Below are positions 25,850-64,000 of a DNA stretch of 64,000 bases, one piece after another (within the stretch, counting starts at the first letter, position 1; every line of letters starts with the position of its first letter). A program made the position numbers and the translations under genes. The notes beneath the pieces were generated by a model. The model did no database searches and was not told the origin of the DNA. It was given only the letters and a program-made list of their open reading frames with translations. The DNA comes from Stegostoma tigrinum (lineage: Eukaryota). The stretch covers positions 21,102,629 to 21,166,628 of the forward strand of contig NC_081391.1 of NCBI RefSeq assembly GCF_030684315.1, written 5' to 3'.

Positions 25850-27056
25850 AACATAAAAGATTAATGCATTTTGGTTGAGAAACATAGAAAGACAAAACAG
25901 GCTCGATGTTACAAATCTGAGGTGAGTACGGGAGCAGAGGGACTTTGGGTTTCAAGTATGTTATTATCTGAAAGTGGCCGAGCGGGACTAACCTGCTATG
26001 AAGAAGGCTTTTGTGAAATGTGTGTTTTCAAATAGATGCGGAGAGTATAAAAGCGAGGAATAGATGTTACACCTCCACAAATCATGGGTTAGACCACATT
26101 TGCAGTACTGTGTTCAGTTCTGGGCATGGTATTTAAGGAAGGACATTAAAGCCCTCGACAGAGTTCAAAGGGCATTTACGAGAATGACACCAGGAATGAG
26201 GGATTTTAGATACAAGGAAAGATGAAGGAAATTGGGATAAATCTCCTTGAAGCATAGTTGATTAAGAGGTGTCCCCGTTGAAGTGACAAAAATAATGAAC
26301 ATTCTGGCAGGGTAAAGGAGGATATCCTGTTTTCACCAGTTGATACGGCAGTGATGAGGGGTCACAATTTGTCAGTAAGGGAGCTCTGAGATGAGGACAA
26401 ACCTCTCTATTCAGAAGGTTGTTAGGATTTGGAATCTGATGCCTGGGAGAGTGGCGGAGGTAGATCCCATAGGTGGCTTCAAAACAAGAGCTGGATATAT
26501 ACTTGGGAGTGACGAATATAGAGGGTATAGGGCTGGAGAGGGGGACTAGGTGGGTAGCTCTTTCGGAAGCCGATACGGACATGATGGGCTGAATGGCCTC
26601 TGTCGTTAAAAATCCTCTGAATGTCCACCCAGGAACTTTTGTAAATTTTGGGTTTGTATTCCTCTCAGTCTTAAATGTCCAACCCAGTCCTCTTACATCA
26701 GGATACCCTGATCCTGGACTCCCCCATCATTGGGAACATCCTTCCTGTCCTTGCCCCGTCTGATCCTGTCACAGTTTTCTATGACCCAGAGCCAATTTGC
26801 CACCTTTCTGTCTCATATCCCAGCACAACAGGCTGAGAAGCTGACACCTCTTCTTCATTGACTTCCTCGTGCAGTTTGTCACAACCACCTTAATTTAGAA
26901 ACAAAATGTTAAAGCTTTTTTCAATTGCCAGTCATCATCAGTTCTGCCCTTCTCTGTGTCAGTGCGGGATGGCCCCCAGGAGTATAAATACAGAGCTTGT
27001 CGGGGAGCAACTCAGTTCTAGGGTGGTCTTGGTTTTAATGAACAAGGCTAGTGATG

Positions 27057-31856: not shown

Positions 31857-33046
31857 AAGCATGTGGATGAGGGAAGGGCAGTTGACGTGGTGTACATGGA
31901 CTTCAGTAAAGCCTTTGATAAGGTTCCACATGGTAGGCTATTGGAGAAAATACAGAGGCAGAGGATTGAGGGAGATTTAGCAGTTTGGATTAGAAACTGG
32001 CTTTCTGTAAAAAGGCAACGAGTGGTGGTTGATGGAAAATATCCAGCCTGGAGTCAGGTCACTCGTAGTGTGCCTCAAGGATCTGCTTTAGGACCACTGC
32101 TGTTTGTCATTTTTATAAATGACTTGGACGCAGGCATAGGTGGATGGGTTAGTAAGTTTGCAGATGACACTAAAGTCGGTGGAGTGGTGGACGGGGTGGA
32201 AGAATGTTGCACGTTGCAGGGAGACTTGGATAAACTGCAGAATTGGGCTGAAAGGTGGCAAATGGAGTTCAATGCAGATAAATGTGAGTTGATTCAATTT
32301 TGGGGGAATAACAGGAAGGCAGAATACCGGGTCAATGGAAAGATTCTTGGCAGTGTGGATGTGCAGATGGATCTTGGTGTCCATGTACATAGATCCCTGA
32401 AAGTTGTCACCAGGTTGATAATGCTGATAAGAAGGCTTACCGTGTGTTAGGTTTTATTGGTAGAGGGATTGAGTTCCGGAGCCGTGATGTCATGCTGCAA
32501 CTGTACAAAACGCTAGTGCGGCCTCATTTGGAATATTGCGTGCAGTTCTGGTCACCCCATTACAGGAAGGATGTGGAAGCATTGGGAAAGGTGCAGAGGA
32601 GATTTACCAGGATGTTGCCTGGTCTGGAGCGCAGGCCCAATGAAGAAACGCTGAGGGACTTGGATCTGTTCTCATTGGAGAGAAGTAGGCTAAGAGGGGA
32701 TTTAATAGAGACATACAAGATGATCAGAGGATTAGATAGGGTGGACAGTGAGAGTCTTTTTCCGAGGATGATGACTTCAACTTGTACAAGGGGGGCATAG
32801 CTACAAATTGCGGGGTGATACATTTAAGACATTTGTCAGAGGCAGGTTCTTTGCTCAGAGAGTGGTAAGGGCGTGGAAAGCACTGCCTGCCAATGTAGTT
32901 AACTCAGCCACGTTAGGGGCATTTAAACAGTCCTTGAATAAGCATATGGATGGTGACGGGATTGTGTAGGAGGTGGGGCTTGGATTAGCTCACAGGTCGG
33001 CGCAACATCGAGGGCCGAAGGGCCCGTTCTGCGCTGTATTGTTCTA
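31857..33046 (+). mobile_element. Independent 5'-truncated CR1 inserted into an older LINE relic
   Basis: RT motifs, GTTCTA tail, TSD TGAACC (31851-31856 / 33047-33052); empty site at ~18245. Confidence 0.92.
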
Positions 33047-35161
33047 TGAACCTTGTGTTTTCAAATTGAGGCATCGAGCATAAAAGCAAGGAATTGATGA
33101 TACCCCTCTACAACTCATTGGTTAGACCACATTTGCAGTGATGTGCTCAGTTCTGGGCGTGGCTTTTAAGGAAGGGCATGCAAGCACTGGACAGAGTTCA
33201 AAGGTGATTTATAATAATGACACCTGGAATGGGGAATTTCAGACACACGGAAAGATTAAAGAAATAGCGCTTATTCTCCTTGGAGCAAGGAGCACTTGTT
33301 GAAGTGATCAAAATTATCACCAATTCTGTCAGGGTAAAGGGGGATATTCTGTTTTCACCAGTGGATACGTTAGTGACGAGGGGTCACAATTTGTCAGTGA
33401 GGGAGCTCACAGTGAGAGGAGGAGAAACCTCTTCACTCAGAAAGTTGGTAGGGTTTGGTATGCGTAGCTGACAGGAGTGATGGACGCAGATTCCGTAGGT
33501 GGCTTTAGAAAAGCAGCTGTATACATATATGGAAGTGGCAAATTTAGAGGGATACAGACATAGGGCTGGAGAGTGGGGCTGGGTGTGGAATGCTTTCAGA
33601 AGCTGAATCAGGCACGATGGACCAAATGGCCTCCTATCATTAAAAATCCTCTGCATGTTCCCCCAGGAAATTCTCAGAGTTTGGAGAGGGCCTTTGTACT
33701 CCTCTCAGTGGGCACCTGTACAAGGCACCTTTAATGTGGGAAAGCTGTTACACATCAGCAGAGACATGGTCCTTTACACAAGGTAGACCCAGTTCCACTG
33801 GCAAAGAAATGTTGACTGGGGATCCCCCAACTGCTGACCTTCACCCACCGTCACAGCCAACGATAGCACACGCCTATCTTCCACCTGGATGGCCGTTGGG
33901 AACTTGTTTTGCATTGCACTTTACCAGGACCTTCCCCTCGATCGTACTGTCCTGGGTGGCCCTGCCAGGAGGTGAAATCCTCTTCAGGTATCACTCTCAG
34001 AACCAACAGAACACTCGAGGCTCTCCATCACTGCGAGGTGACAATCCACAGGCAGGAGCTGGAGGCAGGGAGATGCTGCTCAGGTACAGACCCATCACAG
34101 AATCGGAGAATTGTTGTGGCACAGCAGGCGGCCATTCGGTCCTTTGTGCCTGTACCTGTTCTGGTTGTTTTCTAATTCTGCCTGTAGAGATGTTACAAAA
34201 TCTCTGGATCTGGTATGGACTTGGACCAAGGCTTCCTGGTCCACAGCTAGGGACATTACCCCTGCATCACAATACCCTGGCTGCACTGGTTGTACAAACT
34301 TAGAATCATCGAAAAAAAATTGTTGGATTCGGCCATTCAGCCCCCTCCAGACTGCTCTGCCATTCCATGTGATTGTGGCTGATTCCATAACTCAGTCCCA
34401 TCTTCCCACTCTCTCTCCATACTCTTTGATCCCTTCAGCCCTCAAAGCTACACCCAACTGCTCCTGGAAAACATTCAAAGTTTTGGCCTCAAATGTTTTC
34501 TGTGGCACAGAATTCCACAGGACCCCCACTCTCTCGGTGAAGAGATTTCTCCTCATCTCAGTCCTAAATGTGTCCTTAGGCTGTGACCCCTGATCCTAAA
34601 CTTTTCCATCATCAGGAACATCCTTCCTGTCTTTTCCACAGCTGACACTATGACAATTTTCGATGACCCCGAGCCAATTTCCCACCTTTCTTTCCCAAAT
34701 CCCAGCACAACAGGCTGAGAAACTGACACTCCCCTTCCTCAATGAGTCCCTTGTGCAGTTGATCACAACCACCATAATTTAAAAACAAAACGAGCAATCT
34801 TTTCTCAAACCATATCTACTTCTTTCAGAAAAGAACCAAATGACCTATGACCTGAGTGAGTGGTGCAGAAGGTTTGAGATGCCGAATGGCCTCCTGCTGT
34901 TCCAATCACAGAATAACCATCCAGACCTGGCTCTCATCTCCACCTCTGATCAGCTCTGCTTAACACACCCTCCCCCTCTCTCTCATTGGTGCCTGTATGC
35001 ATGGGTGGCTCCTGATTGGCCAGCAGCAACTGTCAGTCATCATCAGTTCGGTCTCCCTCTGGGTGAGTGCCGGTTGTCTCAGGAGTAGAAACACAACAGC
35101 TTTGGGGATTGAGGCCTTTGTTCCAGAGTTGTCCTTGTGATTGTGAGCAGGAATAGTGAAG

Positions 35162-37555
<2,394 letters not shown>

Positions 37556-40500
37556 GTGGGGTCAATATCTATATCTGTTGTACATGGTGACCTCATTCTA
37601 CTAAATGACTAGTTGTGCTCTGAGCAAATTAAAATAGTATTCACCATGGAATTGAGTACAGTGTGTAATTTCTATAGCTTCTGGTTCTTGGAGCTTTTTG
37701 TGCTGTCATGTCTGATCATCAATCCTTTGTTCTTTGTGACATTCTTTGATTCAATGCCTGCCCCAGTAACTTGCTCAGTGTTTGATTCTGCTGTGTCTGG
37801 GGATTGAGTGGGCAATCCTTTTATTGGAAATTCCATAACTGGTAAGGTTGTTGACAGATAAGTCAGCATTACTGACATCTACCCGCAGGGACAAGTTTGC
37901 AGGACCAGCTTCAAATCAATGCACTGACTGAAATCAGTCCTTTGCCTAAAGGGTAGGCACTGATCTAATGCACTGCCCTTGGTCATGTGTTTGGGTCTCT
38001 TTTTAAATAAGCAGATTCTGGAAACCAGGATCAAAACCTGCTGGGAAATCTCAGGTTTGGCAGCATTGGGAGGGAGAAGGGTTGAACAGAACCTGGCCAT
38101 GAGACACGTGATCATCTCTTGTTTGATTTTGTTGCCTGACAGTGAGGTGTTTTCCAGCAATTTGTTCTAATGCCTTGGTGTTACTCATTTTCGTAAATCG
38201 TAAAATTCCTCCTCCCAAAGAGTAAGATAGAATGCTTTTCCGCAGTTTTTTTCTTTGACATAAGCAATTGCTTATTGCACTCTTCCCTGAGCTAGGGAAT
38301 TAGTTTCTTCAGTATCTCCTTACATGTAAGAGAAAGGAAACATCTACCTTGTCTTACAATGCTAAAGATGATGAGGAACTGCGTTGGGAATGAAGCAGTG
38401 CCCCCCTTGTTGCCTGTGTGATAATTTCTATTATTACCCTGCAACGAAGAGGTGACAAATACTGAGGATGCTTGGTGCAAAAGCAAGCTAAAATGCAACG
38501 AGCATGTGCAGAAATCAGCAGTTTCAATTTTCAAGCAGATCAGATCGCCTGCTGTCGACTGGCTGATCTGTGACTCCACACAGTGCACGCTGGGGGCCTA
38601 ATCACTATCAATCAGCCCTGAATTACAATGTGACTGGTTTGTGTAAGTGCTTTAACAGGATCAGGCTATCACTGACGGGCAGCATTTATTATCCATCTCT
38701 GATTACCCACCCAGCCCATGAGTAATTCAAATTAAACCCCTTTGCTGTGGCCGTGGGGTTACACATAAGCCAGAGCAGGTAAGGATGGCAGTTTCTTACA
38801 AACAAGGACATTAGTGAACTAGAGGCTTGTTTGCACCATCACTTCTGGAATGAGAATGATGTGCAGGAAATTCAGTGATGTCAGACAGAATCAGGAAAAC
38901 AGGTAGCAGTCTAACACTACAGAATGTTGACAGCCTCCAGCAAACGAGCAGCCACTTTAGTCAATCCTTCCACCACTGACATACGCAGAGACTGCAAAAT
39001 ATATACCATCTACCAAATGCTGTAGGAATCCACCAAAGCTCCTCAGACAACTTCTTAAAACCATAACTACTTTCCATCGGACAAGGGCCGCAGAAATGTG
39101 GGAACACCATGCCTCTCCACGTTCTACACTAAGCCACTGCTCATCTGGCATTGGAAACATAGCCCCACATTCCCTCCCTAACAGCAGTATGGCTTTGCCT
39201 ACACCAAATGGGCAACAGTAACGCAAGAAGGAAAGTCACCACGTTCTCTAAACTAATGTTAGCCCTGATCTCTGAGGGGTTCAAATACCTCTGGATGGAG
39301 AGGTATTGGTGAAATTGTCAAGTTCCTGTTCAACCACAGCCGGAGTGCACAGTTCTGGCAGGTACGACCCCGACAATGGTCATGCACAGAATTTCTGGAA
39401 GTAACCTGGACAGAGAGATGGTTAATTCATCATAATGGCTTGTCCAGTCCCTCTGTGTAGAAGGTTAAGGGATGGCTGTAACTGATATTGTTCAGAGGAC
39501 TAACGGATTTGACAGGGTAGAGAGGAAAGAACCCATTTCTTCTCAATGATCATCTCGGACTGTGCGTAGAATGGGATGACAATCTTCACATGAGAACTAC
39601 ATCATCCAGGATCATGTCAAAAACAGTTACTTTGTGGAAAGGACAACATTTGCACGCACAGATATTTACTGCACAAGGCTTGATGTTGCCAATCACTTTC
39701 CAATTTCAAGACATAAAAAAAAAAGTGAGTAATGCATTTTTGTCCAAGAAACACAGAAAGACAAAACAGGCTCGATGTTACAAATCTGATGTGAGTACAG
39801 GAGCTCAGAGGCTTTCGGTTTCAAGTATGCGATTATCTGAAAGTGGTCAGGCAGGATGAAGCTGTTATTAATGGAGATTGAGCCACCTATGTGAACCTTG
39901 TGTTTTCAAATTGAGGCATCGAGAATAAAAGCAATGAATTGATATTGCACCTGTACAAATCATTGGTTAGACCACATTTCCATTATGTACTCAGTTCTGG
40001 GCATGGCATTCAAGGCACGACATGAAAAACCTCAAAAGAGTTCAAAGGAGATTTATTAGAATGACCCCAGGAATGAGGAATTTTAGATACACAGAAAGAT
40101 GAAGGAAAATGGGCTAAATCTCCTTACAGGTGACCTTGTTGACATGATCAAAACTATGAACAGTTTTGATAGAGTAAAAAGGATATTCTGATTTCAGCAG
40201 TTGACTTGTCAGTGACAAGGGGTCACAGTTTGTCAGTAGGGGAGATCAGAGTGAAATGGGAAGAAACCTCTTTGCTCAGAAAGTTGTTCGGATTTGGAAT
40301 GTGCTGCCTGGAAGAGTGACGGAGGTAGATTCCATGGGTGGTTTCAAAACAAGAGTTGGATATGTCCTTGGAAGTGACGAATTTAGAGAGGGACAGAGAT
40401 AGGGCTGGAAAGTGGGACTAATCAGGTAGCTCTTTCAGAAGCTAATACAGGAACGGTGGGCTGAACGGCCTCCTGTTGTGAAGAACGCTCTGAATTTCCA

Positions 40501-46455: not shown

Positions 46456-47631
46456 TGACCAAACAGGTAGATGAGAGTAAACCGGTTGATGTGGTGTATA
46501 TGCATTTCGGCAAGGCGTTCGATTAGGCTCCCCACAGTAGGCTATTGTACAAAATGCGGAGGAATGGGATTGTGGGAGATATAGCAGTTTGGATCAGAAA
46601 TTGGCTTGCTGAAAGAAGACAGGGTGGTGGTTGATGGGAAATGTTCATCCTGGAGACCGGTTACTCGCGGTGTACCGCAAGGGTCCGTGTTGGGTCCACT
46701 GCTGTTTGTCATTTTTATAAACGTAGAAGGATGGGTTAGTAAATTTGCAGATGACACTAAGGTCGGTGGAGATGTGGGTAGTGACGAAGAATGTTGTAGG
46801 TTACAGAGAGACGTGGATAAGTTGCAGAGCTGGGCTGAGAGGTGGCAAATGGAGGTTAATGCCGACAAGTGTGAGGTGATGCACTTTGGTAGGAGGAACC
46901 GGAAGGCAAAGTACTGTAAGATTCTTGGTAGTGTAGATGAGCAGCGAGATCTCGGTGACCATGTACACAGATCCTTGAAAGTTGCCACCCAGGTTGACAG
47001 GGTTGTTAAGAAGGCATACAGTGTTTTAGCTTTTATGAATACAGGGATCGTGTTCCGGAACCAAGAGGTTATGCTGCAGCTGTACAAAACTCTTGTGCGG
47101 CCGCACTTGTAGCATTGCGTACAGTTCTGGTCACCGCATTATAAGAAGGATGTGGAAGTTTTGGAAAGGGTGCAGAGGAGGTTTACTGGGATGTTGCCTG
47201 GTATGGAGGGAAAGTCTTACGAGCAAAGGCTGAGGGACTTGAGGCTGTTTTCGTTAGAGAAAAGAAGGTTGAGAGGTGACTTAATTGAGACATCTAAGAT
47301 AATCAAAGGGTTAGACAGGTTGGATAGGGAGAGCCTTTTTCCCAAGACGGAGACAGCGAGCACGAGGGGCATAGCTTTAAATTGAGGGGTGAAAGATATA
47401 CGACAGATGTCAGAGGTAGTTTCTTTACTCAGAGAATAGCAAGGGTGTGGAACGTTTTGCCTGCAACGGTAGGAGATTCACCAACGTTAAGTACGTTTAA
47501 GTTGTCATTGGACAAGCATATGGACGTACATGGAATAGTGTAGGTTAGATGAGCTTCAGATCGGTATGACAGGTCGGCACAACGTCAAGGGCCGAAGGGC
47601 CTGTACTGTGCTGTCATGTTCTCTGTTCTAT
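46456..47631 (+). mobile_element. Segmental-duplication copy of the 24688 CR1 fragment
   Basis: Same AACATA TSD, same internal deletions and flanks; additional stop and frameshift. Confidence 0.92.
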
Positions 47632-48283
47632 AACATAAAAGATGAATGCATTTAAGATTATTTTCATTAGAAGGGTGATGGGGTCGGGGGGGAACCTGAC
47701 TGAGGTCAACAAAATCATGAGAACTATAGACAAGGTGAATAGCAAGAAGCTTTTTCCCAGAGTCGGGGATTCAATGACTCGGAGTCATGAGTTCAAAATA
47801 AGAGCAAAGTTTAGAGGGGATTTGGTTAGATTGCCTACAGTGTGGAAACAGGCCCTTTAAGCCAAAAATGTCCACACTGGCCCTTGAAGCATCCCACCAA
47901 AACCCCCCACACTTCTGAACGCTACGGGCAATTTATCATGTGGATGTGTGGCAAGCTCTTTACGCAGAGGTTGGAGGGTGCCTGGCACACTTTGCCTGTG
48001 GAGGTGGTAGACGAAGTCACGCAAGTGTCTTTTTAAGATGTATCAGGACAGGTACATGGATGGGCAGGGAGCAAAGGGATACTGACCCTAGAAAAGAGAT
48101 GACAGACTTACACAGGATCTCGATCGGTGCAGGCTTGGAGGGCCGAAGGGCCTGTTCCTGTGCTGTGATTTTCTTTGTTCTTAAATGTGGAGTCAAGATA
48201 GTGACCAGGTTAGTTTCTGATTGAGGAGTGCCATTGATTAACATCAGATATGTTTCCCTTTCCTGCCTTTCTCTTCCCCACGG

Positions 48284-49494
<1,211 letters not shown>

Positions 49495-51050
49495 ATGGGG
49501 TCAATATCTATATCTGTTGTACAAGGTGACCTCATTCTACTAAATGACTAGTTGTGCTCTGAGCAAATTAAAATAGTGTTCACCATGGAACTGAGCACAG
49601 TGTGTAATTTTCATAGCTTCTGGTTCTTGGAGCTTTTTGTGTTTTAATGTCTGATCATCAATCCTTTGTTCTTTGTGACAAGCTTTTGATTCAATGCCTG
49701 CCCCAGTACCTTGATCAGTGTTTGATTCTGCTGTATCTGGGGATTGAGTGGGCAATCCTTTAATTGGAAATTCCATAACTGGTAAGGTTGTTGACAGATA
49801 AATCAGCATTACTGACATGTACTCACAGGGACAAGTTTGCAGGACCAGCTTCTAATCAATACACTGACTGAAATCATTCCTTTGCCTAAAGGGTAGGCAC
49901 TGATCTAATGCACTGCCCTTGGCCATGTGTTTGCATCTCTTTTAAATAAGGAGATTCTGGAAACCAGGAACACAACCTGCTGGGAAATCTCAGGTTGGGC
50001 AGCATTGGTAGGGAGAAGGGTTGAACAGAACCTGGACATGAGACACTCAATCATCTCTTGATTGACTTTGTTGCCTGACAGTGAGGTGTTTTCCAGCAAT
50101 TTGTTCTCATGCCTAGATGTTAGTGATTTTAGTAGTTTGTAAAATTCCTCCTTACAAGACTAAGATACAATGCTTTTCCACAGTCTCTTTTTTTCTTTGA
50201 CATAAGCAATTGCTCATGTCATTGTTCCCAGAGCTAGGGAATTAGTTTCTTCAGTATTTCCTTTATACATGTAGGAGAAGGAAAAATCTACCTTCTCTTA
50301 GAATGCTAACGTCTAGGAACGGCCATGCGAATGAAGCGGTGCCCACCTCGTTCCCTGTGTGATAATTTCTATTATTACCCTGCAACGAAGAGGTGACAAA
50401 TACTGAGGATGCCTGGTGGAAAATCAAGCTAAAATACAAATACCATGTGCAGAATCGGCAGTTCCAATTTTTACGTTTATTAATCTTCAGCAGGAGAGCT
50501 GATCTGGCTGACCTGTGACTCCAAACAGTGCACTGTGGTGGCCTAATCACTATCAATCAGCCCTGAATTACAATGTGACTGGTTTGTGTAAGTGCTTTAA
50601 CAGGATCAGGCTATCACTGACAGGCAGCATTTATTATCCATCTCTGATTACCCACCCAGCCCATGAGTAATTCAAATTAAACCCCTTTGCTCTGCCTGTG
50701 GCGTTACGCAAAGGCCCGATCAGGTAAGGATGGCAGTTTCTTACGAACAAGGACATTAGTGAACCAGAAGAGGCTTGTTTGGACCATCTCTTCTGGAAAG
50801 AGAATGATGTGCATGAAATTCTGTCAAGTCAGACAGTATCAGGATTACAGGTGTCAGTCTAACACTCCAGAATGTTGACAGCCTCCAGCAAACGAGCAGC
50901 CACTTTCGTCTATCCTTCCACCACTGACATACGCAGAGACTGCAATATATACCATGTACCAAATGCTGTAGGAATCCACCAAAGCTCCTCAGCCAACTTC
51001 TTAAAACCGTAACTACTTTCCATCGGACAAGGGCAGATGATATGTGGGAA

Positions 51051-51459
51051 CTTTTTGAGTGCGAGCAGCAGCGGAGGCAAGACGGACCCGGAAGACTGCA
51101 GCTAAGGTAAAGCAGTTTATTTTTAAAACTACTTACCGGTAGCGGGCAGCGGTGTTTTTTTTTGCTCTTTCAGAGAAGGAGCGGGAGCATCAGAGGAAGT
51201 GACGAGGACCAGAGGGGCAGCCGGGAAGGAAAGCAGTGAGTATAAATACTCACCCTTCGACGCCAACGGCCTTTTTGAGTGCGAGCAGCAGCGGAGGCAA
51301 GACGGACCCGGAAGACTGCAGCTAAGGTAAAGCAGTTTATTTTTAAAATTACTTACCGGTAGCGGGCAGCGGTGTTTTTTTTTGCTCTTTCAGAGAAGGA
51401 GCGGGAGCATCAGAGGAAGTGACGAGGACCAGAGGGGCAGCCGGGAAGGAAAGCAGTGA
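51051..51459 (+). repeat. 220-bp tandem monomer (about 1.9 copies) forming the CR1 5' end
   Basis: CTTTTTGAGTGCGAGCAGCAGCGG... begins at 51051 and again at 51271; the two copies are almost identical. Confidence 0.95.
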
Positions 51460-51660
51460 CCATATATATCAGCAAGGCAGCTAAATCCGAGACTCTACAA
51501 CTGTAGTGTCACCCACCCGCCCTCCTCCTCTAACCTAGTTAATAAGGTAAGGTTCATTCTAAACTTTCTCTATTGAACATAAGTTTGTTATTAATTTGTT
51601 ATTATTACTTGAAGTGAGCTTTCTGCTTTAGTACTGAGTGGGTGTTCAGATAAGTGGGGT

Positions 51661-52596
51661 ATGGATGCTAGGGCAGTTGCTTGCTCCTCCTGCAAAATGT
51701 GGCAGTTGGGAGATGTGGCACACGTCTCCGCTGGCTACATCTGCGGGAAGTGCACCCAGCTACAGCTCCTTGAAAACCGTGTTAGGGAAATGGAGCTGGA
51801 GCTGGATGAACTACGGATCATTCGGGAGGCAGAGGGGGTAATTGAGAGGAGTTATCGGGAGTTGGTCACTCCTAAGGCTCAGGACGAGGATAGATGGGTT
51901 ACAGTTAGGGGGAGGAAAGGGGACAGACAGACAGTGCAGAGATCCCCTGTGGGCATTCCCCTCAGCAATAAGTATACCGTTTTGGATACTGCTGGGGGGG
52001 TTGACCTACCAGAGGAAAGCCATAGTAGTCAGTTCTCTGGCACTGAGCCTGACACTGTGGCAAAGAAGGGAAGGGGGCAGAATAGAAAAGTACTCGTGGT
52101 AGGGGACTCGATAGTTAGGGGAATCGACAGGAGATTTTGTGGGCAAGATCGGGATTCCCGGAAGGTATGTTGCCTCCCTGGTGCCAGGGTCCGGGACGTC
52201 TCCGATCGGGTGTATAAAGTTCTGAAAGGGGAGGGTGAACAGCCAGAAATCGTGTTACATATTGGCACAAATGATATAGCCAGAAATAGGTTTGAGGATA
52301 TAAAAAGTGATTTCAGGGAGTTAGGATGGAAGCTGCAGAGCAGGACGAACAGAGTAGTGTTCTCTGGTTTACTACCGGTGCCACGAGATAGCGAGGTGAG
52401 GAACAGGGAGCGGGCGCAGCTGAACACGTGGCTACGCAGCTGGTGTAGGAGGGAGGGTTTCAGATATGTTGATAATTGGGATGCCTTCTGGGGAAGGTGG
52501 GACCTGTACAAGAAGGACGGGTTGCATCTGAACTGGAAGGGGACCAATGTCCTGGGTGGAAGGTTTGCTCGAGTAGTTCGAGAGGGTTTAAACTAG
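51661..52596 (+). CDS. CR1 ORF1: CxxC-CxxC zinc finger, coiled coil, SGNH esterase domain (311 aa, intact)
   Basis: CSSC...CGKC; LELDELRII heptads; VVGDS, HIGTND and DGLH esterase motifs, as known for CR1 ORF1p. Confidence 0.9.
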   Translation: MDARAVACSSCKMWQLGDVAHVSAGYICGKCTQLQLLENRVREMELELDELRIIREAEGVIERSYRELVTPKAQDEDRWVTVRGRKGDRQTVQRSPVGIPLSNKYTVLDTAGGVDLPEESHSSQFSGTEPDTVAKKGRGQNRKVLVVGDSIVRGIDRRFCGQDRDSRKVCCLPGARVRDVSDRVYKVLKGEGEQPEIVLHIGTNDIARNRFEDIKSDFRELGWKLQSRTNRVVFSGLLPVPRDSEVRNRERAQLNTWLRSWCRREGFRYVDNWDAFWGRWDLYKKDGLHLNWKGTNVLGGRFARVVREGLN

Positions 52597-55486
52597 TATG
52601 GCAGGGGGGTGGGAACCTGAGCTGTATACCAGAGGTGAGCGTTGATGCAGGTGAGGCAGTAGCAAGAGGTAGACCAGCTAGTGGGAAGGATTTTCCTGGG
52701 AAGGAACCAAGGGATCGGTTAAAGTGTGTTTGCTTTAATGCAAGGAGTATCAGGAATAAAAGTGATGAACTTAGAGCATGGATCAGTACCTGGTGCTATG
52801 ATGTTGTGGCCATAACAGAGACATGGGTTTCTCATGGGCTGGAATGGTTGCTGGATATTCCAGGGTTTAGAACATTTAAAAAGAATAGGGAGGGGGGAAA
52901 AAGAGGAGGGGGTGTAGCACTACTAATCAGAGAGGGTATCACAGCTACAGAAGCTTCCATTGTCGAGGAAGATCTGCCTACTGAGTCAGTATGGGTGGAA
53001 ATTAGGAACAGCAAGGGAGTAGTCACCTCGTTAGGGGTTTACTACAGGCCCCCCAATAGCAGCAGGGAGATTGTAGAAAGCATAGGTCGACAGATTTTGG
53101 AAAAGTGTGCACGCAGTAGGGTTGTTGTAATGGGTGACTTTAACTTTCCTAATATTGATTGGAACCTCCTTCGAGCAGAAGGATTTGAATGGAGCTGTTT
53201 TTGTAAGGTGTGTTCAGGAGGGTTTCCTAACGCAGTACGTTGACAGGCCGACGAGGGGAGAGGCCATTCTAGACTTGGTGCTCGGAAACGAGCCGGGGCA
53301 GGTATCAGATCTTGTGGTGGGAGAGCATTTTGGTGATAGTGACCATAACACTCTCTCATTCTACATAGCTATGGAGAAGGAGAGGATTAGGCAGAATGGG
53401 AGGATATTTAATTGGGGAAGAGGAAACTATGATGCGATTAGACACGAGTTAGGAAGCATGGACTGGGAGCAGTTGTTCCATGGTAAGGGAACTATAGACA
53501 TGTGGAGATGGTTTAAGGAACAGTTGTTGGGAGTGATGAGTAAATATGTCCCTCTGAGACAGGCAAGACGGGGTAAGATAAAGGAACCTTGGATGACGAG
53601 AGCGGTGGAGCTTCTAGTGAAAAGGAAGAAGGTAGCTTACATAAGGTGGAGGAAGCTAGGGTCAAGTTCAGCTAGAGAGGATTACATGCAGGCAAGGAAG
53701 GAGCTCAAAAATGGTCTGAGGAGAGCCAGGAGGGGGCACGAGAAAGGCTTGGCAGAAGGAATCCGGGAAAACACAAAGGCATTTTACACTTACGTGAGGA
53801 ATAAGAGAATGGTCAAAGAAAGAGTAGGGCCGATCAGGGATAGCATAGGGAACTTGTGTGTGGAGCCTGAGGAGGTAGGGGAAGCCCTAAATGAGTTTTT
53901 TGCTTCTGTCTTTACGAAAGAAACGACCTGTGTAGTGAATGAAACCTTTTGAAGAGCAGGTGTGCATGCTGGAATGGATAGAGATAGAGGAAGCTGATGT
54001 ACTGAAAATTTTGTCAAACATTAAGATTGACAAGTCGCCAGGCCCGGATCAGATTTGTCCTCGGCTGCTTTGGGAAGCGAGAAATGCAATTGCTTCGCCA
54101 CTTGCGAAGATCTTTGCATCCTCGCTCTCCACTGGAGTCGTACCTGAGGACTGGAGAGAGGCAAATGTAATTCCTCTCTTCAAGAAAGGAAATAGGGAAA
54201 TCCCCGGCAATTATAGACCGGTAAGTCTCACGTCTGTCGTCTGCAAGGTGTTAGAAAGGATTCTGAGGGATAAGATTTATGACCATCTGGAAGAGCATGG
54301 CTTGATCAAATACAGTCAACACGGCTTTGTGAGGGGTAGGTCATGCCTTACAAACCTTATCGAGTTTTTTGAGGATGTGACTAGTAAGGTTGATGAGGGT
54401 CAAGCTGTGGATGTGGTGTATATGGACTTCAGTAAGGCATTTGATAAGGTTCCCCATGGAAGGCTCATTCAGAAGGTCAGGAGGAATGGGATACAGGGGA
54501 ACTTAGCTGCTTGGATACAGAATTGGCTGGCCAACAGAAGACAGCGAGTGGTAGTAGAAGGAAAATATTCTGCCTGGAAGTCAGTGGTGAGTGGGGTTCC
54601 ACAGGGCTCTGTCCTTGGGCCTCTACTGTTTGTAATTTTTATTAATGACTTGGACGAGGGAATTGAAGGATGGGTCAGCAAGTTTGCAGACGACACAAAG
54701 GTCGGAGGTGTCGTTGACAGTGTAGAGGGCTGTTGTAGGCTGCAGCGGGACATTGACAGGATGCAGAGATGGGCTGAGAGGTGGCAGATGGAGTTCAACC
54801 TGGATAAATGCGAGGTGATGCATTTTGGAAGGTCGAATTTGAAAACTGAGTACAGGATTAAGGATAGGATTCTTGGCAGCGTGGAGGAACAGAGGGATCT
54901 TGGTGTGCAGATACATAGATCCCTTAAAATGGCCACCCAAGTGGACAGGGTTGTTAAGAAAGCATATGGTGTTTTGGCTTTCATTAACAGGGGGATTGAG
55001 TTTAAGAGTCGTGAGATCTTGTTGCAGCTCTATAAAACTTTGGTTAGACCGCACTTGGAATACTGCGTCCAGTTCTGGGCGCCCTATTATAGGAAAGATG
55101 TGGATGCTTTGGAGAGGGTTCAGAGGAGGTTTACCAGGATGCTGCCTGGACTGGAGGGCTTATCTTATGAAGAGAGGTTGACTGAGCTCGGTCTCTTTTC
55201 ATTGGAGAAAAGGAGGAGGAGAGGGGACCTAATTGAGGTATACAAGATAATGAGAGGCATAGATAGAGTCGATAGCCACAGACTATTTCCCAGGGCAGAA
55301 ATGGCTAGCACGAGGGGTCATAGTTTTAAGCTGGTTGGTGGAAAGTATAGAGGGGATGTCAGAGGCAGGTTCTTTACGCAGAGAGTTGTGAGAGCATGGA
55401 ATGCGTTGCCAGCAGCAGTTGTGGAAGCAAGGTCATTGGGGTCATTTAAGAGACTGCTGGACATGCATATGGTCACAGAAATTTGA
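52584..55486 (+). pseudogene. CR1 ORF2 (AP endonuclease + reverse transcriptase) broken by two +1 insertions
   Basis: FNARS, AITETW, GGGVAL, YYRPP, MGDFN and SDH APE motifs; NYRPVSL, YMDFSKAFD, GVPQGSVLGP and FADD RT motifs. Frame changes near 53183 and 53950; no internal stops otherwise. Confidence 0.9.
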
Positions 55487-58424
55487 GGGTGCATCCATGA
55501 GGATCAATGGTCGGCACAACATTGTGGGCTGAAGGGCCTGTTCTGTGCTGTACTGTTCTATGTTCTATGTTCTAACACCACGTTCTACACCAAACCACCG
55601 ATCAGCTGGTGTTGGAAACATCGCTCCCAGGTTCCCTCCCTAACAGCAGTATGGGTTTGATTACACCAAATGGGCAACAGTAATGCAAGAAGGCAAGGCA
55701 CCACATTCTCTAAACTAATGTTGGCCCTGATCTCTGAGGGGTTCAAATACCTCTGGATGAAGAGGTTTTGGTGAAATGGTCAAGTTCCTGTTCAACCACA
55801 GCTGGAGTGCACAGTTCTGGCAGGTTCGACCCAAAGATGGTTATGCACAGAATTTCTGGAAGTAACCTGGACAGAGTGATGGTTAATTCATGATAACGGC
55901 TTGTCTAGTCCCTCTGTGTAGGAAGTTAAGGGATGGCTGTAATTGATAATTTTCAGAGGATTAATGGATTTGACAGGGTAGAGAGGAAAGAACCCATTTC
56001 TTCTCAATGATCATCTCGGACTGTGCGCAGAATGGGATGACAATGTTCACATTAGAATTACATCATCCAGGATAATATCAAAAACAATTTCTTTGTGGAA
56101 AGGACAATATCTGCACACACAGATATTTACTGCACAAGGTTTGATGTTGCCAATCACTTTCCAATTTCAACAAAAAAAAGTGAGTAATGCATTTTTGTCG
56201 AAGAAACACAAAGTCAAAACAGGCTCGATGTTACAAATCTGATGTGAGTACAGGAGCTCAGCGACTTTCAGTTTCAAGTATGTGATTATCTGAAAGTGGT
56301 CAGGCAGGATGAAGCTGTTATTAATGGAGATTGAGCCACTTTTGTGAACCTTGTGTTTTCAAATTGAGGCATCGAGTATAAAAGCAACGAATTGATGTTA
56401 CACCTCTACAAATCATTGGTTAGACCACATTTCCATTATGTACTCAGTTCTGGGCGTGACATTCAAGGAAGGATGTGAAAAACCTCAAAAGTGTTCAAAG
56501 GTGATTTATTACGATGACCCCAGGAATGGGGAATTTTAGATACACAGAAAGATTAAGGAAAATGGGGGAAATCTCCTTGTAGGTGACCTTATTGACGTGA
56601 TCAAAACTATGATCAATTTTGTCAGAGTAAAGCAGGATATTCTGATTTCAGCAGTTGACTTGTCAGTGACGAGGGGTCACAGTTTGTCAGTAGGGGAGAT
56701 CAGAGTGAAATGGTTAGAAAACTCTTTGCTCAGAAAGTTGTTCGGATTTGGAATGTGCTGCCTGGGAGAGTGACGGAGGTCGATTCCATGGTTGGTTTCA
56801 GAACAAGAGTTGGATATGTCGTTGGAAGTGACGAATTTAGAGAGTGACAGAGATAGGGCTGGAAAGTGAGACTAATCAGGTAGCTCTTTCAGAAGCTATT
56901 ACAGGAACGGTGGGCTGAACGGCCTCCTGTTGTGAAAAACGCTCTGAATTTCCACTCAGAAAATTCTGAGAGTTTGGGGACGGGGTTTGAATTCCACCTG
57001 TAGAAGGCACCTTTAATGTGGGAAAGCTGTTACACGCCAGCAGAGACATGGTCCTTTACACAAGGTAGACCCAGTTCCACTGGCAAAGAAATGTTGACTG
57101 GGGATCCCCCCACTGCTGACCAACACCCACTGTCACAGCCAACGATCGCACACACCTATCTTCCACCTGGATGGCCGCTGGGGACTGGTTTTGCATTGCA
57201 CTTTATCAGGACCCTCCCCTCGATCGTACCATCCTGGGTGGCCCTGCCAGGAGGTGAAATCCTCTTCACTTATCACTCTGAGAACCAACAGAACACTCGA
57301 GGCTTTCCATCACTGCGAGGTGACAATCCACGGGCAGGAGCTGGAGGCAGGGAGATTCTGCTCAGGTACAGACCCACCACAGAATCGGAGAATTGTTATG
57401 GCACAGCAGGAGGCCATTCGGTCCTTTGTGCCTGTACCTGTTCTGGTTGTTTTCTAAATCTGCCTGTAGAGATGATTTAAGATCTCTGGATCTGGTAGGA
57501 ACTTGTACCAAGGCCTCCTGGTCCACAGCTAGGGACATGACCCCTTAACCACAAGACCCTGGCTGCGCTAGTTGCACAAACGTGGAATCATAGAAAATAA
57601 ATGTTGAGTCGGCCATTCATCCCTTCCAGCCTGCTCTGCCATTCCATGTGATTGTGGCTGATTCCATAACTCAGCACCATATTCTCACCCTCTCTGCATT
57701 CCCTTTTGATCCAGCCCTCAAAGCTCTCCCCAATTCCTGTTTTGGCTTCAATCCTTTTCTGTGGCAGAGAATTCCACAGGATCCACCACCCCGCCCCCCG
57801 AGGTGAAGAGATTTCTCCTCACCTCAGTTCTAAATGTATCCTTAGACTGCAAACCCTGGTCCTGAACTCCCCCATAATCAGGAACATCCTTCCTGTCTTT
57901 TCCACAGCTGACACTGTTACAATTTTCTATGATCCAGAGACAATTTCCCAACTTTCTTTCCCAAATCCCAGCATAACAAGCTGAGAAACTGATGCCCCTC
58001 TTCCTCATTGAATCCCTCGTGCAGTTGCTCACAACCACCTTAATTAAAAAAAATGTGAAAACTTTTCTCAAACCAAATTGACTTATTTTAAAAAAGAACC
58101 AAATGACCCATGACCTGATTGAGTGGTGCAGAAGGTTTGAGATGCCGAATGGCCTCCTGCTGTTCCAATCACAGAATAACCATCCAGACCTGGCTCTCAT
58201 CTCCTCCTCTGATCAGCTCTGCTTAACACACCCTCCCCCTCTCTCTCATTGGTGCCTGTATGCAGGGGTGGTTCCTGATTGGCCACCAGCAACTGTCAGT
58301 CATCATCAGTTCTGCCTCTCTGTGTGACTGCAGGATGGTCCCAGGACTATAAATACAAGAGCCTGTGGGAGAGAGAGACTTAGTTCTAGAGTTTTCTTGG
58401 TGCTTGTGAGCAGGAATAGTGAAG

Positions 58425-60700
58425 ATGGTTTCCCAAGTGTGTCAGAACTACCACCAGGACTGTGAGGATGCTGTTAACAAGCAGATCAACCTGGAGCTCT
58501 ATTCCTCCTATGTTTACCTCTCCATGGTGAGCTTTGTGGAATTGAAGCCTGTGCTATGATAGTGTTGACCTGTTTGGTTTTTATGCTGGGTTAATGAATT
58601 AGCTGTAACATGTATTATTTTCTGTGGCCCTTCCCCTGTTGTAATCTAGTGCAGGTCTTATCACTGACTCTCTGTTCAAAACTTGACCACTGTCTTCATG
58701 TCCAACTGGCTCCTGGATGTGGATGCCCAGCTTGCTGTCTCTGGACAATGTAACCCTTGGTGATTTTTTTCATCTAACTCTGGAGGGATGATCTGGTCTT
58801 GGTCAATAATTAATTTTTGTCAAACTTTGGTTGTATTCCTTTTCTTAACAAAAGCTTTTCCTGACACAAATATACTCCTTTTTTCAAACCTTGCCCTATT
58901 CACCGGACTGTCTTGTGCTCAAGATGTCAAGTTCCCTGAACTAAAAGAACAGCTGCTGCTAGACATTAAACACTAACAAAAATAGCTAGAAAAGCTCTAC
59001 AGAGCTGGAAGAAATCCAAGCTCTGGGTCCATTGACCCTTTCTCAGAAGTGGCTTTGAGCTATGCAATGTGAGGAAAGGGGCACATTTTCAGACTATGTA
59101 TGTGTTTTTTTTTCTTTCTCTCTCTAACAAAGCAGTTAAAATTCTGTGGAGTGGGTGGTAGGACACTGCGGTTATTCAGGTGGGTGATAGTGATAATGAG
59201 ACTGCTGACTGAGCTTTCTGGTTGTGTTAATGAACACATGTCCCTTCATTCAGTTGGACAGGGGCCGAACTGGTCTCCACCTCCTGAACAATAGTGTTTC
59301 TAACCTGCAGAGCACGGATGTCTAATGGCTCTAGACAGCTCTCCCCTTCATCATCCATGGAAGGTGACTTCCTGCTTTGTCTGTTTTTTTAACCACTTAA
59401 ATGTGGAATCCAGATGGTGCCCAGGTTAGTTCCAGAGTGAGGAGTGTCATTCATGAATTTCAGACAGTTTCCTTTCAGCCTCTCTTCCCACAGTTCTCTT
59501 ACTTTGACCGGGATGATGTTGCCCTGCATCACTTTGCTGAGTTCTTCAAGGAGCAGTCCCATGAGGAACGGGAACACGCTGAGAAACTGATGGCATTCCA
59601 GAATAAACGTGGAGGTCGAGTCCTCCTGCAGGACATTAAGGTTAGATTCTGAAGCCTTCTGTTTGCAGCTTTTTGTGAGCAGCTACAATCGACTGGTATC
59701 TCCATCTATTTAGCTTTAGCCTTGAACAAATACTGTGTGAAGGGGAGGGTGTTCACCAAAATAGGATTCCTTTAGGTTGAAAGGAAATACTCTGCACTTA
59801 TGAGGGCAATTGAGAGGAACCAGAATAGTGAGTAGATATCAATGTGAATGACTCTCCTTCAGACAGAATGAGGTAACAAAAGCTAAGACAGGAAATTGTT
59901 GCACTGTGGAAAGTAGCAGTGTCCAGCCTTTCTGAATCTGGAAGATGTTTCTAACACCACAATAGTGAAGCCAGGAACTACTTCCATTGGTACCTATTCT
60001 CTACATGTGAATTCTGAGAATCTACATTAACAGTAGAATGTGTTTAGAAAATTTGTTATTCCCTCAGTACAAAATCTAGTTGTTGTCTTCAAATTCAAGT
60101 TGGTTTGCAGTACCTCCCCTACAATGATGAGGGATAACTAACTGATCAGATGTAGACTAATGATACAACTGCCTGCTGAACTGTGCTTTCTGTTCCTGCT
60201 TCCCTCCCTCCAGAAGCCAGAGCAGGATGAGTGGGGCAGTGGTCTGGAGGCAATGCAGAGAGCTCTGCAGATGGAGAAGGATGTGAACCAGAGTCTGCTG
60301 GATCTGCACAAACTCGCCTCTGGCCACACTGACCCTCATGTGAGTTTGTAAACTTTCTTCTTGGAAGAAAGTGGTGTGTTTGTGCACTCTCTGGGTAAAA
60401 ATCCAATTACCTTCTCCCAGCCTCCTGCAGGCTGTTAAAACAAACTTACAAATGCATCACCTCAGTGGACCTCCACCTGGTTGTGATGGTCACATCTGTC
60501 ATGGGGGTCACTTTCAGACACTTTTGATCCTCTGGATTAATTTTCTCTTCCAGCTGTGTGACTTCCTGGAGAGGCAATACTTGGATGAGCAAGTGAAGAT
60601 GATCAAGAAGCTGGGAGATCACATCACCAACCTGAAGAGACTGGGAGCCCCTGACAATGGCATGGGAGAGTACCTGTTTGACAGGCTCACACTCGGCTGA
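58425..60700 (+). CDS. Ferritin copy 9, intact, 173 aa
   Basis: Exons 58425-58526, 59494-59640, 60214-60339, 60554-60700. TATAAATA at 58348. Near-identical to copy 4. Confidence 0.94.
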
Positions 60701-62773
60701 ATGGGGTCAATAATGTGTATGTTGTACATGGTGACATAATGCTAGTAACTTGGTTGTGCTCTGTGCAAATTAAAATAGTGTTCACCATGCAACTGAGTAC
60801 TTTGCATAATTTCACAGCTGCTTCTGGCTCTTGGTATTGCTGTTTGACACCTGATCATGAAGTGTTTTTCTGTTCTGATTAACCTTTGATTCAATGCCTG
60901 CCCCACTGGCTTGCTCCTTTTCTCTTGTTTGTAGGAATTAGGTGGGCAATCCTTGTAGTGGAAATTCCACAAGTGTTCAGTTTGGGTTTTTTTGGCTAGT
61001 AAGCAGTGTTGTATTGACTTCTTTATTCCAAACCAGCTTCTGGTCAATATCTTCAGTGAAACCAGCCCCCTGTCTCAATGTTAGACACTGCCCTTGCAAA
61101 TGTTTAGGTCTCTTTTGTAAATCAGCAGGGGCAGGAAATAGCAAGTTTGGGGAGCATCTGTGGAGAGAAAACTGTTCAGTCCCAGGACCCAAGCTTTCCA
61201 GCAATTTTGTTGTCGCACTTCAAATCTAATGATTTGAGCATACATTCACTCTTTTTGGAACAGGAATATATATAGCAGAACATCCAGCATTTCAGATGCA
61301 CTGATCTTTAGCATTTAGATAAGCAATTGTGTCCAGATGTGGGAAATTGGTTTCTCTCTTTTGCTGCGGTGGTGGAAGGAGTGAGGGCAGTGGCTGTTTG
61401 TAGGAGAATGGCAAAGTTTATTTTCTTGTGTATCAGTCTCTCTGCTTCTAGACAATGATCCTGATTACGTAATGAAGCAGTCCCCACCTTCGAGCCCCTG
61501 TGCTAGAACTTCATCACTTCTCTGCAGTCTAAGGACGCCAAATGCTCATGACACCAGGAGAAAATAAAGCTCGAACCCAAATGCCACTGGCAGAAAGCAG
61601 CAGTTCCTATTCTTAGCAAGGAAATAAGCTCTCCTGATGTAGATTGACTGACTGGAATGTACCTACACCTGCAGAGCACTCTGGCTGCCGAATTACTGAT
61701 GCTCAGGGGTGACAGATTCCTTTATAAAAAGGATGAGGATGTCTCTGAGCTGACACCATTTATCCATTTCCGATTGCCCCCCGCCAAAGCCAGGTCAGAG
61801 TGTCACGCTTTGCTGTGGTTGCAGTGTCATATGCAGGCCAGACTAAGTAAGGATGCATTTTTGACACTGAATTTAATGCTACTCATCAGTTTCTTAATTC
61901 TAGAACTCGAGAGTTGTTGCACAGAATTAGAAGATCAGTCCACCACTCCAGAAATGTGATGGCCTCCCGCTCCCACCAGCCACGAGATTCATTCTTTGCA
62001 CCACTGACACACACAGAGTACACTGTGTACTGCCTCCCAAAAGCTGCAGAAATCCACCATCGCTCCTGAGACAATACTTTCCATAGCCCTAATTACGTGC
62101 CATGGGAGAAAAGCATCTGATACAGGGGAACACCACCCCCTCTAACTACTCCACCAAGCGACATGCCATCCTGAGTTGGAAACGTGACCCGCCATGCTCC
62201 AGGGTCGGTGGATCAGAATCCTGGAATTCCCTCACTCAGAACATTATGGATCTGACGACAGCAAATAGGCAACAGCAATTCAAGAAGGAAAGCCACCACA
62301 TTCTCTCATGGTGAGCCTGATCTCAGACCGGGTCCAATACCTCGGGATGGGCCTTCTTTTGTGAAATTGTCAAGTCCTAGTTCAACCCCATCTGGAGTGC
62401 ACTGTTCCAGTAGGTTCAATCCAAAGATGCTTATGCACAGAATTTCTGGAATGAACCTGGGCAGAAAGTTAATTGGCTACGATGATAATAGTTTTCCCAA
62501 GTCTCTCGGTGTAGAAGTGGAAGGGATGTCTGTGCTTGAAATTTACAAGTGGATTCATGGATTTGATAGGGTAGATAGAGAGATCCTGCTTCTTTTCAAT
62601 TCCATTCCAGGACCGAGAGTGGGGAATATGATTACATTCCTAGTAGTAGAAGTAAATCATCCATGATAAAGCAAAAAACAGCTGCTTTTTGGAAAGGATA
62701 ATATGTGAATGAGCAGTTAGATATTTATTCGGTAGGATATTGATGTTGCCAATCACTTTCCCATTGCAACATA

Positions 62774-63935
62774 TGACCAAACAGGTAGATGAGAGAAAAC
62801 CGGTTGATGTGGTGTATATGGATTTCGGCAAGGCTTTCGATTAGGCTATTGTACAAAATACGGAGGAATGGGATTGTGGGAGATATAGCAGTTTGGATCA
62901 GAAATTGGCTTGCTGAAAGAAGACAGCGTGGTGGTTGATGGGAAATGTTCATCCTAGAGACCGGTTACTCGCGGTGTACCGCAAGGGTCGGTGCTGGGTC
63001 CACTGCTGTTTGTCATTTTTATAAACGTAGAAGGATGGGTTAGTAAATTTGCAGACGACACGAAGGTCGGTGGAGATGTGGATAGTGACGAAGAATGTTG
63101 TAGGTTACAGAGAGACGTAGATAAGTTGCAGAGCTGGGCTGAGAGGTGGCAAACGGAGGTTAATGCGGACAAGTGTGAGGTGTTGTACTTTGGTAGGAGG
63201 AACCGGAAGGCAAAGTACTGTAAGATTCTTGGTAGTGTAGATGAGCAGAGAGATCTCGGTGACCATGTACACAGATCCTTGAAAGTTGCCACCCAGGTTG
63301 ACAGGGTTGTTAAGAAGGCATACAGTGTTTTAGCTTTTATGAATCCAGGGATCATGTTCCGGAACCAAGAGGTTATGCTGCAGCTGTACAAAACTCTGGT
63401 GCGGCCGCACTTGGAGCATTGCGTACAATTCTGGTCACCGCATTATAAGAAGGATGTGGAAGTTTTGGAAAGGGTGCAGAGGAGGTTTACTAGGATGTTG
63501 CCTGGTATGGAGGGAAAGTCTTACGAGGAAAGGCTGAGGGACTTGAGGCTGTTCTCGTTAGAGAGAAGAAGGTTGAGAGGTGACTTAATTGAGACATATA
63601 AGATAATCAAAGGGTTAGACAGGTTGGATAGGGAGAGCCTTTTCCCTAGGACGGAAACGGCGAGCACGAGGGGGCATAGCTTTAAATTGAGGGGTGAAAG
63701 ATATAGGACAGATGTCAGAGGTAGTTGCTTTACTCAGAGAATAGGAAGGGTATGGAACGCTTTGCCTACAACGGTCGTAGATTCACCAACTTTAAGTACA
63801 TTTAAGTCGTCATTGGACAAGCATATGGACGTACGTGGAATAGTGTTGGTTAGATGAGCTTCAGATCGGTATGACAGGTCGGCACAACGTCAGGGCCGAA
63901 GGGCCTGTACTGTGCTGTAATGTTCTATGTTCTAT
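62774..63935 (+). mobile_element. Segmental-duplication copy of the 24688 CR1 fragment
   Basis: Same TSD and flanks; nearly identical to 24688-25849. Confidence 0.92.
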
Positions 63936-64000
63936 AACATAAAAGATTAATGCATTTTGGTTGAGAAACATAGAAAGACAAAACAGGCTCGATGTTACAA

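Follow-up and report, generated by a model that had tools for sequence, protein, structure and literature searches.

How LINEs with monomer promoters avoid promoter wear is a long-open question that has been studied almost only in mouse L1. The same question is raised by a CR1-type LINE of Stegostoma tigrinum, whose 5′ end carries a duplicated unit with a consensus TATA box just ahead of the second copy; if transcription starts behind such a box, the driving sequences would be left out of the RNA. The element lies in a 64-kb window—the whole stretch of DNA analyzed here, 64,000 nt in length—that corresponds to a ferritin array, with nine ferritin gene copies in tandem on the + strand. The LINE, 4.5 kb long and on the same strand, sits between a ferritin copy ending near 49491 and the next, beginning near 58425. 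Its 5′ end is laid out as a 189-bp core, a 31-bp spacer, a second 189-bp core, and a 201-bp tether, after which comes the ATG. The features referred to below are as follows.

51049–51051, + strand: left target-site duplication, AA(C), the C common to the first base of the element
51051–55573, + strand: full-length CR1-type LINE, ends fixed by an empty paralogous site
51051–51239, + strand: monomer core 1, 189 bp, CpG-rich; T-run start, CCGGAAG at 51088, mini-intron at 51107–51173, GGAAGTGACG at 51195
51236–51253, unstranded: perfect inverted repeat around the TATA box; 8-bp arms at 51236–51243 and 51246–51253, 2-nt loop
51240–51270, + strand: spacer, 31 bp, completing the 220-bp unit; TATAAATA at 51241–51248, at −30 to the next unit
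51270–51276, + strand: candidate TCT/YC initiator; C at −1, C at +1 (51271), five T
51271–51459, + strand: monomer core 2, 189 bp; putative first exon at 51271–51326 (56 nt), then intron; CCGGAAG at 51308, GGAAGTGACG at 51415
51327–51393, + strand: GT-AG intron, 67 nt; AAG/GTAAAG donor, branch-like CTTAC, T-tract, CAG acceptor; twin at 51107–51173
51460–51660, + strand: tether, starting CCATATATAT; TATATAT at 51463, with a C 30 nt later (51493)
51661–52596, + strand: ORF1, 311 aa, intact; N-terminal CxxC..CxxC, coiled-coil-like stretch, SGNH/GDSL esterase
52476–55486, + strand: ORF2 (AP endonuclease and reverse transcriptase), in three frames: 52476–53243, 53131–53952, 53939–55486
55487–55573, + strand: short 3′ UTR; TTCTATG repeats at the end, no poly(A)
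55574–55576, + strand: right target-site duplication, AA(C)

Empty paralogous sites occur at 17440–17510, 39070–39150, and 10630–10710, and the first of these gives a target duplication of AA or AAC. C51051 may be target-derived, in which case the element would begin at 51052; the initial annotation had the element and the unit beginning at the same base, which stands for 51051 or 51052, the C being ambiguous with the target duplication. A paralogue of the surrounding DNA at 15536–25914 is 98–99% identical on both sides and lacks the element. The window contains a higher-order duplication with a period of ~38 kb (15536–25914 versus 49112–64000, 98–99% identity). The CR1 inserted after this duplication, which makes the insertion very recent and the element at 51051–55573 young.

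ORF1 matches Pfam Lipase_GDSL_2 (E = 1.6e-13) and the ORF1 esterase of PDB 4c1b (E = 2e-28). Over 86% of its length, ORF1 shares 99% identity with a protein of Stegostoma tigrinum; the next named matches come from other sharks and rays, and full-length homologues are named from turtles and a bird. ORF2 matches Exo_endo_phos (E = 3e-14) and RVT_1 (E = 2e-35) and is broken in this copy, being split over three frames. The 3′ UTR folds no better than shuffles (z −0.30, 72 of 200 shuffles as good), and its tail presumably resembles that of HER1/HE1. Assignment to the CR1 clade is probable, based on the ORF1 homologues and the short-repeat tail. Chicken CR1, turtle PsCR1, and shark HER1, the last named as a shark/ray LINE (PMC3747384), share with the element a Cys-rich N terminus and esterase in ORF1, an APE-RT ORF2, a short-repeat tail, and a very short target duplication; the tail here is built on the heptamer TTCTATG, whereas that of amniote CR1 is described as an octamer (PMC4316615). 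The 5′ UTRs of CR1 elements are reported to be poorly known because of heavy truncation (PMC4316615).

TRF recovers a single array in the window, at 51051–51459, with a period of 220, 1.9 copies, and 99% agreement. The cores at 51051–51239 and 51271–51459 are identical except for one C/T difference at 51129/51349 (1 of 189 bases), the spacer at 51240–51270 is present once, and CpG observed/expected is 0.91 in the unit against 0.27 in the window. These values bear out the initial annotation in its description of 220-bp CpG-rich tandem monomers, and the motifs that it named, CCGGAAG (51088/51308), GGAAGTGACG (51195/51415), and the inverted repeat around the TATA box, were recovered as well. So was its central observation: CTTTTTGAG occurs at 51051 and 51271, and TATAAATA at 51241 lies exactly 30 nt upstream of the second. 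TATAWAWR beginning 28–33 nt before the unit end appeared in 0 of 20,000 dinucleotide shuffles, and this site forms the only TATAWAWR–YCTYTYY pair among the 29 TATAWAWR sites on both strands of the window. The YC dinucleotide followed by at least four pyrimidines at 51270–51276 matches the definition of a TCT/5′TOP promoter. A perfect 7-bp inverted repeat arose in 25 of 1000 shuffles; among motifs chosen after the fact, CCGGAAG arose in 64 of 2000 and GGAAGTGACG in 1 of 2000. The claim that the TATA box of one monomer precedes the next monomer stands for the first unit; the second is followed by the tether, which starts CCATATATAT and has no TATAAATA hairpin. The unit contains no YY1 motif, searched as GCCATCTT or ATGG, the monomer RNA folds no better than shuffles (z −0.48), and a bacterial promoter/terminator scan, not applicable to shark DNA, stayed at chance level.

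No other copy of the full-length element is present in the 64-kb window, and the prevalence of the array was read from public sequencing runs. Of 24 listed runs, none of them on record as RNA, four (X1, X5, X6, and X23) were aligned at 80% likeness to a reference with one whole core, 51211–52110; with such a one-unit reference, two units are indistinguishable from three. Organism A, the source of X1, X6, and X23, is taken to be the host species or a very near one because 704 of 3199 aligned X1 contigs are at least 99% alike. Run X23, which consists of raw bisulfite DNA reads, gave 1850 aligned reads out of 12.8 million (1938 Mb), or coverage of ~0.52x given a genome of 3.71 Gb (PMC10620051). 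Depth in the spacer bin was 22.8 (+) and 46.9 (−), ~70-fold in total, which corresponds to ~130–180 copies as a floor. Minus-strand bins surviving bisulfite have depths of 47 in the spacer, 70 in the monomer core, and 94–97 in the tether. In X1, summed contig depth is 61,702 for the spacer, 127,000–244,000 for the core, and 55,000–182,000 for the tether, compared with 11–27 for eight listed lone contigs. In X6, a 61-nt contig covers 51211–51271, the core end plus spacer, with 0 differences at depth 893; in X5, a 199-nt contig has 166 nt of monomer running into the spacer; and one X23 read carries the 220-nt back-joint itself, with 65 letters on the short side. The monomer–spacer–monomer chain is thus family-wide, in a young CR1 family of multi-hundred copies. 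The junction-to-tether ratio of ~0.5, about one junction per two tethers, implies a mix of one-unit and multi-unit copies, ~1.5 units on average by depth; bisulfite treatment and contig overlap bias such depths, which are not copy numbers.

In organism B (run X5), the unit is nearly unchanged at depth 16–30 and the tether is at 2.5–10; this may reflect contamination, a low-copy relative, or recent transfer, and it is not counted as a second species. Runs X5, X8, and X11–X16, from five other organisms, contain 20–50% of the leader's sampled words, and organisms C–F have shares of 0.11–0.36. Neither viral contigs nor prokaryote genomes yielded a locus in exact-pattern scans. Scans by ORF1 alignment recovered 0 of 46 candidates in genome contigs, 0 of 24 in viral contigs, and, in metagenomes, one locus of 227 candidates (L001), 46% identical and with no 5′ UTR. 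Several X23 features were set aside: the loose ends at 51536, 51683, 51770, 51861, 51943, and 52106 are bisulfite-converted continuations of the reference rather than junctions, and a back-joint from 51357 to 51241 (3 reads, side 22) is likely a misalignment of A/T-rich converted reads.

Each unit also contains a GT-AG mini-intron (51107–51173 and 51327–51393), a feature absent from the initial annotation. Strong donors lie at 51107, 51327, and 51547, exactly 220 nt apart; 403 of 5000 unit shuffles contain a donor of this kind. The intron was predicted from sequence, with boundaries off by one base, ahead of the read test, in which its exact GT..AG removal is one of 14 listed joints, carried by 3 reads with 3 different starts (side 53) in the DNA run X23; in these intron-skipped reads, the letters between the joint flanks are marked as not known. 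GT..AG ends make up 0.6% of possible cuts of 30–150 nt, and intron-less cores are ~2% of cores by depth. Genomic copies lacking the intron imply retrotransposition of spliced RNA: every module has an intron, and it was removed from some RNAs that were later copied back into the genome. No X6 contig has the intron-skipped joint and the intron is well covered there, so that most X6 molecules retain it. Two X6 contigs depart from the reference precisely at the donor (51326) and continue in other sequence, one of them at depth 313; if X6 is RNA, this suggests splicing to host exons. CR1 ORF1 sequence is also annotated within host-gene isoforms (RPS24, TMEM204, NUBP1) of rays and a turtle (P0025, P0082, P0083, P0101), of which P0025 is ORF1-like throughout; these isoforms suggest frequent splicing of such elements into host transcripts. 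Each arm of the inverted repeat opens with a GTGAGT donor-type hexamer, one per strand. The sense donor within 51236–51253 could splice out the TATA box together with the first exon of the next unit; no splicing from it is seen among the joints listed, for which the reference began just 25 nt upstream.

The positions at which copies begin were read from 24 of 694 loose ends and 24 of 4310 pieces. Among those listed, two X6 contigs have foreign sequence ahead of 51272, an X1 contig enters at 51274 after 589 foreign nt, and another X1 contig joins ORF1 sequence, at 52015, to 51273. With the copy at 51051, this makes five listed 5′ ends within 4 nt of the unit boundary, the other four at +2 to +4; the +1 C is kept in 0 of these 4 contigs. 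Three listed X6 contigs enter inside the unit, at 51355, 51357, and 51360, and may be truncations, another family, or T-rich chance matches. The possibility of random 5′ ends, raised at the outset as an objection, is thus countered by the four contigs that begin 1–3 nt after the boundary, but not by the three at 51355–51360. No place where many molecules begin appears in the reads of the four runs, and contigs are unable to show one; in X6, which is probably RNA, the spacer is as deep as the unit start (1438 versus 1447), with no step at 51271. Phasing of 5′ ends at the unit boundary is therefore likely, not proven.

Within the tether, a block at approximately 51486–51537 is common to older families: in organism A, other families also carry it and diverge after 51535–51537, and in organism B (run X5) the block at 51481–51540 reaches a depth of 67,000–187,000 with cores at just 16–30, a comparison in which cores diverged beyond 80% would escape alignment and the low-depth copy may be contamination. 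We read 51486–51537 as a probable conserved CR1 leader element just 3′ of the tether's TATA-like box, and this distribution suggests that, in this CR1 lineage, a monomer promoter was newly added to an older, shared leader. Haas, in the title of a 2001 paper, reportedly claimed that CR1 subfamilies differ in their 5′ UTRs, and an older leader with a new monomer promoter would echo this. The third donor, at 51547, lies 220 nt after the second, with candidate acceptors ending at 51631 and 51649. Despite this spacing, derivation of the tether from an old, diverged monomer is suggestive only, with 29 of 1000 shuffles doing as well in global alignment and 188 of 1000 in local. The 610-nt leader (51051–51660) has no ATG; its 421 non-redundant bases are ATG-free in 102 of 5000 shuffles. 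Rfam gave two matches on the leader, both far below threshold. One X6 contig lacks 90 tether bases (51482–51573) with non-canonical ends at depth 44, and is a deletion variant.

Taken together, the explanation that we favor, on balance, is a promoter made of a chain of 220-bp modules, with starts at boundaries behind an upstream TATA box and with units lost and regained. Its parts differ in strength: a family-level monomer promoter with phased starts is probable; that the upstream TATA box sets the start is rather likely; and ongoing regeneration of units has slightly better than even support. Each module may be a compact Pol II promoter of housekeeping type that has been opened at the start site. 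Read as a circle, it would comprise ETS/half-CRE sites at −76, TATA at −30, a YC + T5 start, an ETS site at +38, a donor at +56, and a short intron. The 3′ half of one module (ETS/half-CRE, TATA at −30) would fire at the C/T-run opening the next, whose 5′ half would supply a 56-nt first exon, a downstream ETS site, and the intron. RNA started at a boundary would lack the module that drove it, such that daughters would tend to have one module fewer and long-term survival would need new units. In a one-module copy, transcription might still be driven by the TATA-like box heading the tether, but the daughters would be promoter-less. By weaker reasoning, chains could be lengthened through slippage or unequal exchange between units that are 99.5% identical, or by re-annealing of the reverse transcriptase's 3′ end to an inner unit, whose start is identical; growth and loss from the 5′ side would keep the units alike. 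One sign of renewal is position 51384, which reads C in 98% of the depth of both X1 and X6, in the X5 contig, and in 14 of 16 minus-strand reads of X23, and which is G at the equivalent place in both monomers of the copy at 51051–55573. A minority G in both units hints at re-duplication or homogenization after the variant arose, on the evidence of a single site beside a T-run with many indels.

An ordinary internal promoter in a doubled unit, the strongest of the competing explanations, would account for much of this differently: the start would be set by downstream elements (initiator, ETS at +38, intron), a one-unit copy would reproduce itself, the upstream unit and its TATA box would merely boost output, and no regeneration would be needed. 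Most non-LTR elements are described as using internal promoters (PMC1636488), TCT promoters as mostly TATA-less and, in Drosophila, TRF2-dependent (PMC8047918); about half of the 5′-intact copies lack the spacer by depth, and X6 molecules containing the spacer must have started upstream of it. Yet an internal promoter leaves unexplained a consensus TATA box at exactly −30 (0/20,000 shuffles), found in the very part of the unit that boundary-started RNA leaves behind, as well as a further TATA-like box in the equivalent position behind the last unit, and we consider it unlikely, if quite conceivable. Regeneration could also be dispensed with if one or a few fixed source copies of at least three units, formed once, had made all two-unit and one-unit daughters, the family eroding until it ends with its sources. 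The low junction-to-tether ratio of ~0.5 fits such erosion, as do the reported fall of monomer number with subfamily age in mouse (PMC9022269) and the reported weakness of mouse daughters relative to their donors (PMC10620060), but the minority variant shared by both units points to homogenization or re-duplication after subfamilies split, and the units differ at just 1 of 189 bases; we judge fixed sources improbable. They do temper the view of the initial annotation that the element must regenerate monomers, which applies in the long run only; a few long-array source copies could feed the family.

The boundary might instead be a preferred place of 5′ truncation, through a reverse transcriptase stop or joining at the T-run, in RNAs arising from host read-through or further upstream. 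The other boundary contigs do begin inside the T-run at +2 to +4, and X6 has both contigs with foreign sequence ahead of 51272 and spacer-containing molecules. However, microhomology with the target at 51051 is just 1 nt, the hairpin that might stop reverse transcriptase ends 17 nt upstream of the boundary and not at it, and the TATA spacing, ATG-free leader, and 56-nt exon followed by a donor fit a transcript start, all of which makes truncation very improbable. Least credible of all is a one-off duplication at insertion, or an assembly artefact. The array at 51051–51459 does have just two units, with no other copy in the window; against a duplication unique to this copy, which the initial annotation had named as fatal to its reading, stand a spacer depth of ~70 at ~0.5x coverage, a contig depth of 893, and a junction covered deeply in three organism A runs and also present in one run from organism B. 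This depth refutes a one-off event unless, in organism A, it stems from a detached unit satellite, and unit and tether depths of the same order speak against a satellite. The observation made in the initial annotation is confirmed, and its interpretation is partly supported.

Among known systems, mouse L1 (L1Md A, Tf, Gf) and rat L1 come closest, with ~200-bp CpG-rich tandem units and a ~200-bp tether before ORF1 (PMC5381506, PMC9022269). Mouse L1 also has 5′ ends phased within the unit, and unit loss is expected in its daughters (PMC9022269, PMC10620060), which are reported to lose monomers and to begin at a fixed place in the unit (PMC10620060, PMC9022269). In the mouse, however, starts are described as clustering at a YY1 motif, and the shark CR1 unit has neither GCCATCTT nor ATGG. 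The shark element has a CR1-type affiliation, an esterase ORF1, and a short-repeat tail rather than an L1-clade affiliation and poly(A); its unit has a consensus TATA 30 nt upstream of the probably phased end, a putative C/T-run start, and a working mini-intron; and its arrays seem short, at ~1.5 units on average by depth compared with the 3–4 given for young mouse families. The shark CR1 promoter would work like the rodent L1 monomer promoters without belonging among them, given its other clade, lack of YY1, upstream TATA, and intron in each unit. At Drosophila telomeres, HeT-A likewise draws on a repeat unit for a promoter that lies upstream of its start, and for TART a template jump between direct repeats has been proposed to rebuild the 5′ end (PMC1636488). 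The HeT-A promoter is described as coming from the 3′ end of a neighbor, whereas in the shark the upstream unit lies in the element's own 5′ array at an interstitial insertion; the 5′ flank is ferritin intergenic DNA matching the empty site, not an upstream element. The spliced integrated retrotransposed elements (SpIREs) of human L1 are genomic copies that lack a 5′ UTR intron exactly (PMC5860796); the spliced shark copies differ in being CR1, in having a 67-nt intron in every unit, and in being known from 3 reads, with no whole spliced copy seen. Among the papers listed by full-text literature searches, none concerns a CR1 promoter that is monomeric or carries an intron; an earlier description may exist in older CR1 work or in Repbase.

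Ribosomal-protein-type promoters have a short first exon followed by an intron. Vertebrate TCT/5′TOP housekeeping promoters, those of ribosomal-protein genes among them, further resemble the shark unit in a YC start with a pyrimidine run, GABP/ETS-type sites, and, in a minority, a TATA or TATA-like box (PMC8047918, PMC10716046); 5′TOP is defined as CYYYY (PMC10716046). In the shark unit these parts stand in circularly permuted order and as repeats within a mobile element, with a putative start at C and putative LARP1/mTOR control; no host source gene for the unit was identified. Since the C is absent from all four other boundary contigs, and at 51051 is ambiguous with the target site, the link from TOP to growth signaling suggested in the initial annotation derives from the motif itself, and TOP/mTOR control of translation is a doubtful proposition. 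A bolder synthesis is more speculative still. A vertebrate CR1 family may have taken up a housekeeping promoter of TATA/TCT type, complete with first exon and intron, and chained it after a cut at the start; each transposition would remove exactly one unit, and survival of the lineage would depend on reverse transcriptase or the genome restoring units; the RNA would be a capped, 5′TOP, intron-bearing message under mTOR/LARP1 control, passing as a ribosomal-protein-like mRNA; and the units would be ready-made first exons for neighboring host genes. We regard this combination as improbable.

Even so, the case would be informative for promoter wear. Mouse L1 starts scatter around YY1 sites; if the start in the shark is fixed by an upstream TATA box, whole units would be lost countably, and one long-read shark genome could show the rate and route of their regain. 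The monomer solution would also have arisen outside L1 and outside mammals, with other core-promoter parts, and this is among the few CR1 5′ ends with evidence of splicing.

Some minor observations concern the remainder of the window. At the Rfam gathering score there are 0 matches in the 64 kb, with no iron-responsive element in the ferritin array, and a tRNA search found none. Older CR1 families are represented by 5′-truncated copies at 24690–25843, 31854–33048, 46458–47650, and 62776–63930; these four are ~70% identical to the full-length element and are carried by the array duplications. The ferritin array extends over 141–60697, with four exons per copy and copies ~6–8 kb apart. Exon 1 gave no match in the copy at 48278–49491, and most of exon 3 is missing from the copy at 13390. 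An in-frame stop interrupts the exon-2 match of two copies (14559–14738, 28204–28338).
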